Assembly (NCBI GenBank): GCA_000002435.2 | Contig: AACB03000027.1 | Reading direction: 5' to 3' (one strand) | Source: Giardia intestinalis | Taxonomy: Eukaryota | Length of the DNA stretch: 2,889 nt | Shown here: piece by piece, positions 1 through 2,889 of the stretch | Numbering within the stretch: the stretch's first letter is position 1 | How the letters are laid out: each line of letters starts with the position of its first letter | Notes under the pieces: generated by a model | What the model was told of the DNA's origin: nothing | The model's input: only the letters and a program-made list of their open reading frames with translations | The model's database searches: none | Made by a program: the position numbers and the translations under genes

Positions 1-2889
1 GACGAGATTGCCCAACTCAGAGACGCACTTTCTGCACACGCGGTCTCCTGCAGATGGTCTGCAAACAGCTATCAACCAGCTCGCCGACAAGGTTCAGGAC
101 AACGGCAGCCTGGTTACACACTCATGGGCAATATCGTCCAGGGTGTGGAATCTGCAAGCGCCGAGGGCGAATTGCCAGTTACCATTGATGGACTTACGGC
201 TCGCATCCGGGCTCTAGAAGATGCCGCTGCGGAAGCAAGGACAGATGCCGAACGGAAGCGCCGAGATCTCCAGGCTTCAGAGGAGAGGCTCGCCGCCAGG
301 ACCCGAGATCTCTCGAATCCGAAGAGCCCGGGGCAGCACGCCCGAATCCAGGCCCTTGAAGAGGCCCTCCAAGCCCGTGACGAAGAGCTTGCCCGCCTCC
401 AGGCCGCAGCCGCCGAGCCCGCCATTGACTATCCTGCCCTTTCTCCGGGCCGCGGAAGAGGCTCGCGCAGCCGACGAAGCCCGGCACCGAGGCGCTGGAC
501 GATCTCCGGCAGCAGCTGCGCGCCAACGAGCAGGCAGACCGGGCTGCAATCCAAAGCGCCCTTGGCCGACTGGCAGAAAGGTCAAGGAGAACGAAGGCCT
601 CACAAAGCGCCTCGGAGGACGCCGTCGCTAGCGGAGCCCGCGGAGCCCGCGCCTGGCCCAGACCACCACCGACTACGACGCGCCTCCTGGCCGAGAAGGA
701 CGCGAGATCAAGCGCCTCCAGGAGGCCCTGCTCTCCCAGCCCACCGGGGACGTCCTGGCACAGAAGGACGAGAGATATGCCCAACTCAGAGACGCACTTT
801 CTGCAACGCGGTCTCCTGCAGATGGTCTGCAAACAGCTATCAACCAGCTCGCCGACAAGGTTCAGGACAACGGCAGCCTGGTTACACAACTCATGGGCAA
901 TATCGTCCAGGGTGTGGAATCTGCAAGCGCCGAGGGCGAATTGCCAGTTACCATTGATGGACTTACGGCTCGCATCCGGGCTCTAGAAGATGCCGCTGCG
1001 GAAGCAAGGACAGATGCCGAACGGAAGAACGCGAGATCTCCAGGCTTCAGGAGAGGCTCGCCGCCCAGGACCCGAGATCTCTCGAATCCGAAGAGCCCGG
1101 GGCAGCAGCCCGAATCCAGGCCCTTGAAGAGGCCCTCCAAGCCCGTGACGAAGAGCTTGCCCGCCTCCAGGCCGCAGCCGCCGAGCCCGCCATTGACTAT
1201 CCTGCCCTTCTCCGGGCCGCGGAAGAGGCTCGCGCAGCCGACGAAGCCCGGCACCAGCAGGCGCTGGACGATCTCCGGCAGCAGCTGCGCGCCAACGAGC
1301 AGGCAGACCGGGCTGCAATCCAAAGCGCCCTTGGCCGACTGGCAGAAAAGGTCAAGGAGAACGAAGGCCTCAGCAAGAGCGCCTCGAGGACGCCGTCGCT
1401 AGCGGAGCCGCGAGCCCGCGCCTGGCCCAGACCACCACCGACTACGACGCGCTCCTGGCCGAGAAGGACCGCGAGATCAAGCGCCTCCAGGAGGCCCTGC
1501 TCTCCCAGCCCACCGGGGACTCCTGGCACAGAGAGGACGACGAGATTGCCCAACTCAGAGACGCACTTCGCAACGCGGTCTCCTGCAGATGGTCTGCAAA
1601 CAGCTATCAACCAGCTCGCCGACAAGGTTCAGGACAACGGCAGCCTGGTTACACAACTCATGGGCAATATCGTCCAGGGTGTGAATCTGCAAGCGCCGAG
1701 GGCGAATTGCCAGTTACCATTGATGGACTTACGGCTCGCATCCGGGCTCTAGAAGATGCCGCTGCGGAAGCAAGGACAGATGCCGAACGGAAGAACGCCG
1801 AGATCTCCAGGCTTCAGGAGAGGCTCGCCGCCCAGGACCCGAGATCTCTCGAATCCGAAGAGCCCGGGGCAGCAGCCCGAATCCAGGCCCTTGAAGAGGC
1901 CCTCCAAGCCCGTGACGAAGAGCTTGCCCGCCTCCAGGCCGCAGCCGCCGAGCCCGCCATTGACTATCCTGCCCTTCTCCCGGCCGCGGAAGAGGCTTCG
2001 CGCAGCCGACGAAGCCCGGCACCAGCAGGCGCTGGACGATCTCCGGCAGCAGCTGCGCGCCAACGAGCAGGCAGACCGGGCTGCAATCCAAAGCGCCCTT
2101 GGCCGACTGGCAGAAAAGGTCAAGGAACGAAGGCCTCAGCAAGCGCCTCGAGGACGCCCGTCGCTAGCGGAGCCGCGAGCCCGCGCCTGGCCCAGACCAC
2201 CACCGACTACGACGCGCTCCTGGCCGAGAAGGACCGCGAGATCAAGCGCCTCCAGGAGGCCCTGCTCTCCCAGCCCACCGGGGACGTCCTGGCACAGAAG
2301 GACGACGAGATTGCCCAACTCAGAGACGCACTTTCTGCAACGCGGTCTCCTGCAGATGGTCTGCAAACAGCTATCAACCAGCTCGCCGACAAGGTTCAGG
2401 ACAACGCAGCCTGGTTACACAACTCATGGGCAATATCGTCCAGGGTGTGGAATCTGCAAGCGCCGAGGGCGAATTGCCAGTTACCATTGATGGACTTACG
2501 GCTCGCATCCGGGCTCTAGAAGATGCCGCTGCGGAAGCAAGGACAGATGCCGAACCGGAAGAACGCCGAGATCTCCAGGCTTCAGGAGAGGCTCGCCGCC
2601 CAGGACCCGAGATCTCTCGAATCCGAAGAGCCCGGGGCAGCAGCCCGAATCCAGGCCCTTGAAGAGGCCCTCCAAGCCCGTGACGAAGAGCTTGCCCGCC
2701 TCCAGGCCGCAGCCGCCGAGCCCGCCATTGACTATCCTGCCCTTCTCCGGGCCGCGGAAGAGGCTCGCGCAGCGACGAAGCCCCGGCACCAGCAGGCGCT
2801 GGACGATCTCCGGCAGCAGCTGCGCGCCAACGAGCAGGCAGACCGGGCTGCAATCCAAAGCGCCCTTGGCCGACTGGCAGAAAAGGTCA
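1..2889 (+). CDS. Internal fragment of a large gene encoding a repetitive coiled-coil protein made of 256-aa tandem modules. There is no start or stop codon in the window, and the reading frame is broken by copy-specific 1-2-bp indels. Those indels are probably sequencing errors, and the alternative is a decayed pseudogene.
   Basis: The majority-consensus unit is 768 bp, which is 256 codons with no stop on the + strand. The translation shows heptad-type Ala/Leu/Glu/Arg/Gln periodicity (...LTARIRALEDAAAEARTDAERKNAEISRLQERLAAQ...IQALEEALQARDEELARLQAAAAEP...ALDDLRQQLRANEQADRAAIQSALGRLAEKVKENEGLSKRLEDAVAS...). In the raw sequence the consensus frame can be followed piecewise. It is frame 2 for about 779-1031, frame 1 for 1033-1378, frame 0 for 1380-1520 and frame 0 for 1536-1568. 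It is then frame 1 for 1570-1683, frame 0 for 1684-1998, frame 1 for 1999-2127, frame 0 for about 2157-2406, frame 2 for 2408-2554 and frame 0 for 2556-2889. Minus-strand ORFs are low-complexity A/R/S/G/P-rich shadows. The strand call is confident, but gene intactness is not. Confidence 0.55.
12..780 (+). repeat. Repeat unit copy 1 (769 bp). It is the most indel-laden copy, with about 18 small indels relative to the majority consensus.
   Basis: Hand alignment against copies 2-4. Examples are 'ctgcacacgcgg' versus 'ctgcaacgcgg', 'ttacacactcatg' versus 'ttacacaactcatg', 'ggaagcgccgag' versus 'ggaagaacgccgag', and 'cttcagaggagagg' versus 'cttcaggagagg'. Further examples are 'gccgccagg' versus 'gccgcccagg', 'gcagcacgcccg' versus 'gcagcagcccg', 'ccctttctcc' versus 'cccttctcc', 'caccgaggcg' versus 'caccagcaggcg', 'gcagaaaggtc' versus 'gcagaaaaggtc' and 'gagcccgcggagcccg' versus 'gagccgcgagcccg'. 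Confidence 0.9.
781..1549 (+). repeat. Repeat unit copy 2 (769 bp), with about 5 small indels relative to the consensus.
   Basis: Differences from the majority are 'aacgcgagatc' (-1 near 1031), 'caagagcgcc' (+2 near 1378), 'gactcctgg' (-1 near 1521) and 'cacagagaggac' (+1 near 1533). The start has 'gacgagagatatgcc' in place of 'gacgacgagattgcc'. Confidence 0.9.
1550..2314 (+). repeat. Repeat unit copy 3 (765 bp), with about 6 small indels and one substitution relative to the consensus.
   Basis: Differences are 'cacttcgcaacg' (-2 near 1568), 'gtgtgaatc' (-1 near 1683), 'ctcccggcc' (a g>c substitution), 'gaggcttcgcg' (+1 near 1998), 'caaggaacgaagg' (-2 near 2127) and 'gacgcccgtcgc' (+1 near 2157). 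Confidence 0.9.
2315..2889 (+). repeat. Repeat unit copy 4. It is partial, with 575 bp before the window edge, and has 4 small indels so far.
   Basis: Differences are 'gacaacgcagcc' (-1 near 2406), 'gaaccggaag' (+1 near 2555) and 'gcagcgacgaagccccggcacc' (-1 then +1, near 2773 and 2783). It is otherwise base-identical to copy 2. Confidence 0.9.

Follow-up and report, generated by a model that had tools for sequence, protein, structure and literature searches.

The window analysed here, the whole 2,889-nucleotide stretch of Giardia intestinalis contig AACB03000027.1, consists throughout of one repeat, which is a genuine in-frame, homogenised tandem array of 256-codon units within a Giardia gene. 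We consider it likely that the window is an internal piece of the array in a single assemblage A gene, the orthologue of the two hypothetical-protein genes DHA2_152437 and GLP15_4739, that the array encodes a long, mostly helical rod, and that the public models of this gene are shortened by at least half.

The recurrence distances of 12-mers in the window were found to cluster at 765-771 nucleotides (567 at 767, 482 at 768 and 337 at 769), with the double period as the sole other peak, and a repeat search likewise spaced all repeat families by 765-771 nucleotides. When the window was cut at positions 1, 770, 1539 and 2304 and the four pieces were aligned, they yielded a consensus unit of 768 nucleotides, equal to 256 codons, of which the window holds 3.76 head-to-tail copies with neither spacer nor unique end sequence. 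These two results bore out the proposal of an earlier, sequence-based note on this stretch, that a 768-base-pair (256-codon) unit is repeated head to tail with no spacer or unique flank; the note had also expected an autocorrelation peak at 768-769, and the 12-mer distances, at 765-771, had their maximum at 767. Tandem Repeats Finder gave no rows for the window, but its maximum period of 500 lies below 768, and this is thus not evidence of absence. All units lie on the plus strand. Unit 1 (positions 1-769) is full, with codon 1 at window base 1, and half of all departures from the 768-nucleotide consensus (19 of 38) fall in it. Unit 2 (770-1538) is also full and has seven private differences; the longest error-free stretch (1032-1375) begins in it. 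Unit 3 (1539-2303), full at 765 nucleotides with a net loss of three bases, has eight private differences, and unit 4 (2304-2889), a partial copy of unit positions 1-586 that is truncated where the record stops, has four.

The copies proved to be nearly identical. Compared with four copies of the consensus, the window showed 38 differences (17 inserted bases, 18 deleted bases and 3 substitutions), all of them private to one unit (0/38 common to two), and 23 of the 35 insertions and deletions (indels) were changes in homopolymer length. Identity at aligned bases was 99.9%, so that indels were the only appreciable difference, and the differences together amounted to about 1.3%; the near-identity stated in the earlier note therefore stands, while its figure of about 99% before the indels was too low. 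Because each difference was private to one copy, we read the indels as sequencing error, and they look like weakly polished long-read error and not like features of the locus. The density of differences dropped along the record, and in the first unit (window 1-769) it was 2.5-3 times that of the later units, resembling the low-coverage end of a long-read contig. The raw window was not an intact frame, and its longest open reading frame (ORF) was limited to 277 amino acids because one-base indels break the frame. In contrast, the consensus had no stop in frame +1, which starts at window base 1, either within the unit or over the junction between units, and the five other frames each had stops in every unit. 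One -1/+1 pair in the consensus was corrected where only three copies cover the position, and this correction was later confirmed independently by the match to the Giardia DH gene described below. The repeat is accordingly head-to-tail and spacerless, with a period that is a multiple of three and one frame open over the junctions.

The first protein search returned a single relative, WP_164875159.1, a 255-residue 'hypothetical protein, partial [Streptomyces sp. SS]', whose source is contig AKXV01000073.1. A HMMER search with this Streptomyces-labelled protein led to GLP15_4739 (EFO62623.1, 1000 amino acids) of Giardia lamblia P15 (assemblage E), and DHA2_152437 (ESU36892.1, 1001 amino acids) of Giardia DH (assemblage A2) was found to be its cluster-mate. 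Both are annotated as 'hypothetical protein' and are the only models that we found, in keeping with the expectation that the product would be unannotated or fragmented in databases. We used AHGT01000037.1 of DH (L005) and the P15 contig (L002) as reference loci. Consensus positions 253-766 matched AHGT01000037.1 positions 11561-12074 with 100% identity over 514 gapless nucleotides, and the P15 contig at 9882-10394 with 94.2% nucleotide identity. The offset of the match from the annotated start codon was divisible by three, placing the window frame in the annotated gene frame; near-identical nucleotides and a shared frame are what an orthologue of DHA2_152437 and GLP15_4739 should have. Because the consensus is identical to, and in frame with, the DH gene, the window was assigned to Giardia intestinalis assemblage A, and because the independent DH assembly matches there, the corrected consensus is right over two thirds of the unit. 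In unit 2 the matching segment, which corresponds to residues 85-255 of the unit, occupies window positions 1022-1536; its counterparts, also on the plus strand, lie at 253-767 in unit 1, at 1788-2301 in unit 3 and from 2556 in unit 4. The orthologue of isolate WB was not among the hits of word-indexed protein searches, whose recall was incomplete (a query with the P15 N-terminus missed GLP15_4739), and this is not evidence of absence; the accession numbers given to the adjacent genes point to a WB gene model there, possibly KAE8305151.1 / XP_001709253.1. Our literature search found no paper on the gene identifiers or on a 768-base-pair or 256-residue Giardia repeat.

The window array and the two gene models share a frame and probably represent the same gene, but they differ in extent. 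The path of the DH and P15 models through the unit runs from residue 85 to residue 255, which retains 0.67 of a unit (171 residues), and they lack residues 1-84 and the 256-to-1 junction. This form is the shortest path, k = 0, in a series of 171 + 256k residues, and, provided that the window derives from this locus, the boundary phase by arithmetic requires k of at least 4, or no fewer than four additional whole units. In that case the array is required to span at least 3586 nucleotides (171 + 4 × 256 = 1195 amino acids) and the protein to have at least about 2025 residues, not 1000. Residues 1-84 and the 256-to-1 junction were kept in frame in AKXV01000073.1 and in a distant metagenomic relative (ENA ERZ27277194, contig k141_155295; L007), and the full unit therefore predates the split of these lineages. 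In L007, positions 1-668 join unit residues ~213-256 to residues 1-97 at about 48-55% amino acid identity, and this GC-rich (GC, guanine plus cytosine) segment has AT-rich unique sequence on both sides; L007 presumably comes from another Giardia-like organism, and the unit junction would then be ancient.

Six Logan assemblies from different sequencing runs (L008-L013) begin 23-44 nucleotides inside the end of the unit, four of the six at exactly 29 nucleotides, and then run on into the right flank GTCTCCGATG... This is the signature of a de Bruijn graph branch, at which the last k-1 bases of the unit have two successors, namely the next unit and the flank, and the breaks at the unit end therefore give independent support for a multi-copy array. 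The contig of run SRR3177927 (L008, positions 1-44) has a terminal copy with a private T-to-G change before the right flank, reading GACGGCCTGG and not GACGTCCTGG; because of this change it reaches 15 nucleotides deeper into the array than those of the other runs, which shows real variation in the terminal copy. Two further Logan contigs of the 5' part of the gene, L003 (11343-11402) and L004 (1384-1443), end about 160 nucleotides before the array; their last few bases, ...CCTGTGAG and ...CCTGCG, differ from ...CCTGTGCATT in DH, and this break is not explained by the repeat itself. Published work on the genomes concerned describes similar behaviour: the P15 paper reported that repeat regions had collapsed and that G+C-rich repeats assembled poorly (PMC3091692), and the WB PacBio paper reported that PacBio errors had caused frameshifts and that 33 small, repeat-rich contigs were left unplaced (PMC7000408). 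The earlier note had argued that the locus exceeds the window and that units so long and so similar are often collapsed or mis-counted in short-read assemblies. Both points held: unique flanks are present in DH and P15 and the phase calls for the extra units, and collapse or breakage is seen in the two-thirds unit of DH and P15, in AKXV01000073.1 as a single circularised unit and in the Logan breaks.

Between lineages the unit has diverged considerably more than it has among the copies in the window. Orthologous units differ by 6% from assemblage E and by 18% from AKXV01000073.1, which probably represents an assemblage B-like lineage, whereas within the window no difference was common to two copies. 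Copies that are identical within a lineage and orthologues that have diverged form the pattern of concerted evolution, which may proceed here by unequal crossing-over or gene conversion. The ratio of nonsynonymous to synonymous divergence (dN/dS) of the unit was 0.13 against AKXV01000073.1 and 0.07 against P15, so that the unit protein is under purifying selection between Giardia lineages; its length was exactly kept. Between DH and P15, identity was 87.9% in the N-terminal region and 94.2% in the repeat; the former value agrees with the published average of 87% between assemblages A and E (PMC3091692). Synonymous divergence (dS) between assemblages A and E was 0.21 in the repeat and 0.52 in the unique N-terminal 1500 nucleotides.

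The encoded 256-residue unit, which is rich in Ala, Leu, Glu, Arg, Asp and Gln, has a hydrophobic period of 3.4-3.7. A simple home-made 28-residue heptad index gave 9.0 for the unit, compared with 4.0 ± 0.7 in shuffled sequences, a value seven standard deviations (SD) above them. The AlphaFold model of the related AKXV01000073.1 unit, computed as a single-sequence monomer, was about 85% helix with a predicted local distance difference test score (pLDDT) of 65 and a predicted template modelling score (pTM) of 0.27; it contained seven helices, with lengths of 7-57 residues overall and of 20-57 in six cases, broken at Pro/Gly sites. Because of the low pTM, the unit is predicted to lack a compact fold. 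Heptad a/d periodicity on long helical stretches was thus supported by the hydrophobic period, the index and the helices of the monomer model, and together with the open corrected frame it agrees with the large, periodic coiled-coil product that had been predicted from the letters. Comparison of the unit with itself by BLASTP gave the self-match only and no internal sub-repeats. A Pfam search with the unit returned only generic coiled-coil families below threshold (TMF_DNA_bd, ADIP, CENP-F_leu_zip and similar; best score 22.2 bits against a cut-off of 35), PDB sequence searches returned only noise, the unit model had no Foldseek match at E < 6, and neither strand gave a hit in Rfam or tRNA scans.

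In DHA2_152437, about 520 unique N-terminal residues precede the repeat, which is followed by about 220 heptad-like residues and C-terminal ankyrin repeats. The N-terminal region was predicted to be all-helical, and its AlphaFold model had a pLDDT of 40.5, with no assignable fold. Ank_2 at residues 915-992 (E = 1.1e-14) was the only Pfam domain above the cut-off. A published class of Giardia proteins is defined by ankyrin repeats in combination with no kinase, zinc-finger or other Pfam domain (PMC7000408); the full-length orthologue DHA2_152437 fits this definition, and the window itself does not. Like those proteins, DHA2_152437 has ankyrin as its only Pfam domain and lies amid ankyrin-repeat genes; unlike them, it has only about three ankyrin repeats, at the extreme C-terminus, and the bulk of it consists of the unassigned helical N-terminus and the array of 256-residue repeats. 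Public records call it 'hypothetical protein' and not ARP-1 (short for ankyrin repeat protein 1). The neighbouring genes mostly encode ankyrin-repeat proteins, and the flanking genes in WB are GL50803_0015023 and 'ankyrin repeat protein 1'. The run of ankyrin-repeat genes in which the gene lies encodes products of 511, 1815-1850, 1024, 1038-1098 and 726+ amino acids (L002, L005, L008-L013), and its WB counterpart is on a 4,018,654-base-pair record.

The left flank of the array ends ...CTAGCGCGGAAG and the right flank starts GTCTCCGATGAATC... The 17 residues preceding the array (LNDLLLSQPISDVLARK, L005 11510-11560) are a degenerate copy of the unit end (LQEALLSQPTGDVLAQK) in AT-rich codons, and farther upstream in the same contig LLKERDKEIDRL resembles LLAEKDREIKRL of the unit; both LNDLLLSQPISDVLARK and LLKERDKEIDRL look like traces of an ancestral single-copy segment. 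A sharp step in GC content was found inside the gene, with 64-69% in the repeat and 41-50% elsewhere (L005 10001-13006; window 1-2889), for which GC-biased gene conversion in the array is one possible cause.

We propose that each unit would form several heptad-patterned helices of 20-57 residues with short Pro/Gly linkers between them, and that the array would form a segmented coiled-coil rod of at most ~38 nm per unit (256 residues at an α-helix rise of ~0.15 nm). Such a rod would space the all-helical N-terminal region from the C-terminal coiled coil and ankyrin module, with the number of units setting its length. By analogy with Giardia ankyrin and coiled-coil proteins, and from the ankyrin-gene neighbourhood, the role of the protein is probably structural and cytoskeleton-associated. 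Among such proteins, GASP-180, median body protein and HPSR2 are coiled-coil cytoskeletal proteins of Giardia with long heptad coiled coils, and GASP-180 also has ankyrin repeats; none of them came up as similar in our searches, the ankyrin repeats are C-terminal here, and the unit has 256 residues. Other protist structural proteins and antigens with long repeat arrays, for example the repetitive cytoskeletal proteins of trypanosomatids and the Leishmania kinesin K39, resemble the present array in having homogenised in-frame repeats that are helical or coiled-coil and collapse in short-read assemblies. We detected no sequence relationship to them, and the 256-residue unit is far longer than the 14-68 residues typical of their units. 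A bolder form of the proposal is that the array acts as a copy-number-variable 'length ruler' in a giant structural protein of more than 2000 and perhaps far more residues, that isolates or assemblages differ in the number of units, that the GC step is a footprint of GC-biased gene conversion, and that the copy number is high enough to have made the repeat the sole visible Giardia contig in a bacterial genome project with light contamination; we hold this only tentatively and think it rather doubtful as a whole.

Several points weigh against the assignment to a DHA2_152437-type gene and to a structural role. No read or contig links the window to the unique flanks of such a gene, and a second locus with the same unit could take the place of the DHA2_152437 orthologue. 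It is conceivable that the short forms of DH and P15 are true alleles and not collapses. The coiled-coil call depends on a heptad index of our own making and on a monomer model whose confidence is moderate (pLDDT 65), and the N-terminal region, which could not be modelled, lends no support to a specific cellular role. Additionally, no localisation, expression or proteomic evidence for the protein was found in the literature search.

If the array is real and coding, its main role might still be that of an exposed immunodominant antigen or an adhesin-like fibre and not of an internal cytoskeletal spacer. Long repeats of near-identical sequence are a typical feature of parasite antigens, and nothing in the present data localises the protein. 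Nevertheless, the N-terminus of DHA2_152437, judged by eye only, had no evident signal peptide or transmembrane feature, and both ankyrin repeats and heptad coiled coils are features characteristic of proteins of the cytoplasm. In addition, the paralogous class of the adjacent genes, ARP-1 (formerly 'protein 21.1'), is reported in published work to be cytoplasmic or cytoskeletal. We therefore regard the antigen as an unlikely main role compared with the structural one.

The tandem structure might also be an artefact, in which a single or partial unit was concatenated by the assembler or by rolling-circle-type amplification of a small circle, or in which the record is a single noisy raw read, so that the 1000-residue models would be correct. 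The window indeed has no unique flanks, its differences per unit fall in the manner of raw-read errors (19, 7, 8 and 4), and two independent assemblies carry only 514 base pairs of the unit. However, an artefact should not have conserved, in frame and in both AKXV01000073.1 and L007, the residues 1-84 and the junction that the short form lacks; the six short-read assemblies stop at the unit end as expected from two successors, and the period is exactly 256 codons with the junction in frame. We consider this explanation very improbable.

The bacterial label of the first relative raises a further alternative, in which the repeat belongs to a surface or coiled-coil protein of Streptomyces, so that the window would be actinobacterial or the unit would have moved between actinobacteria and Giardia. 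In its favour, the only match in the first protein search carried the Streptomyces sp. SS label and the GC content of the unit (64-67%) lies far above that of the Giardia flanks (41-50%). The record in question, however, is an isolated 767-base-pair contig with no flanking bacterial sequence. It consists of one unit, circularly permuted relative to the window unit, with the same 768-nucleotide period; it is colinear with the unit without internal gaps and is one base short of the period. WP_164875159.1 thus shares the full unit and the period; 18% of its positions differ, third codon positions accounting for most of them (31/22/86 differences by codon position). The contig is 82% identical to the window unit at both the nucleotide and the amino acid level and 85% identical to that of assemblage E. 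Its GC content at third codon positions (GC3) is 75%, whereas GC3 in Streptomyces is usually above 90%. No match to the unit was found in 185,579 GTDB bacterial and archaeal species genomes (two peptide patterns and a conserved 32-mer), in plasmids, phages and viral contigs, or, by peptide patterns or the conserved 32-mer, in JGI metagenomes, and all other relatives were Giardia or Giardia-like. Because the repeat evolves more slowly than the N-terminus, identities of 82% and 85% to assemblages A and E fit the distance of assemblage B, for which the published identity to assemblage E is 77% ± 5 at the nucleotide level (PMC3091692). A metagenomic N-terminal fragment (L006) was 77% identical to both A and E, equal to that published B-E distance. 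Judging from these sequences, the likeliest source of AKXV01000073.1 is contamination by a Giardia lineage whose distance is about that of assemblage B. Only the repeat appears to have been assembled in the Streptomyces sp. SS project, which hints at a high copy number in the genome of that lineage. The bacterial reading was rejected, since HMMER found Giardia genes and none of the bacterial genomes searched was found to carry the unit, and little likelihood remains to it.

Equally improbable is that the indels are real and the array a decaying non-coding satellite or pseudogene of a once-coding repeat, as a longest ORF of 277 amino acids and about 35 frameshifts in the raw window might suggest, given that none of the indels is common to copies, that most are run-length changes, that the majority-rule consensus restores a perfect 256-codon frame fully identical to the independent DH assembly, and that dN/dS is 0.07-0.13.

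The presence of an in-frame array within an assemblage A gene has consequences for how this gene is studied. The public models of 1000 and 1001 residues probably represent at most half of the real protein and lack unit residues 1-84, so that anyone relying on them for proteomics, localisation or knock-down would overlook the greater part of the protein. The locus also illustrates how identical long repeats are left unpolished and frameshifted in long-read assemblies and collapsed or broken in short-read ones, and how a contig of one repeat unit came to stand in RefSeq under the name of Streptomyces. This particular gene is uncharacterised, although the class to which its product would belong, that of large repetitive coiled-coil proteins, is a familiar one in protists. 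A rod of at least five 256-residue helical units joined to an ankyrin module would be a plausible component of the unusual cytoskeleton of Giardia.

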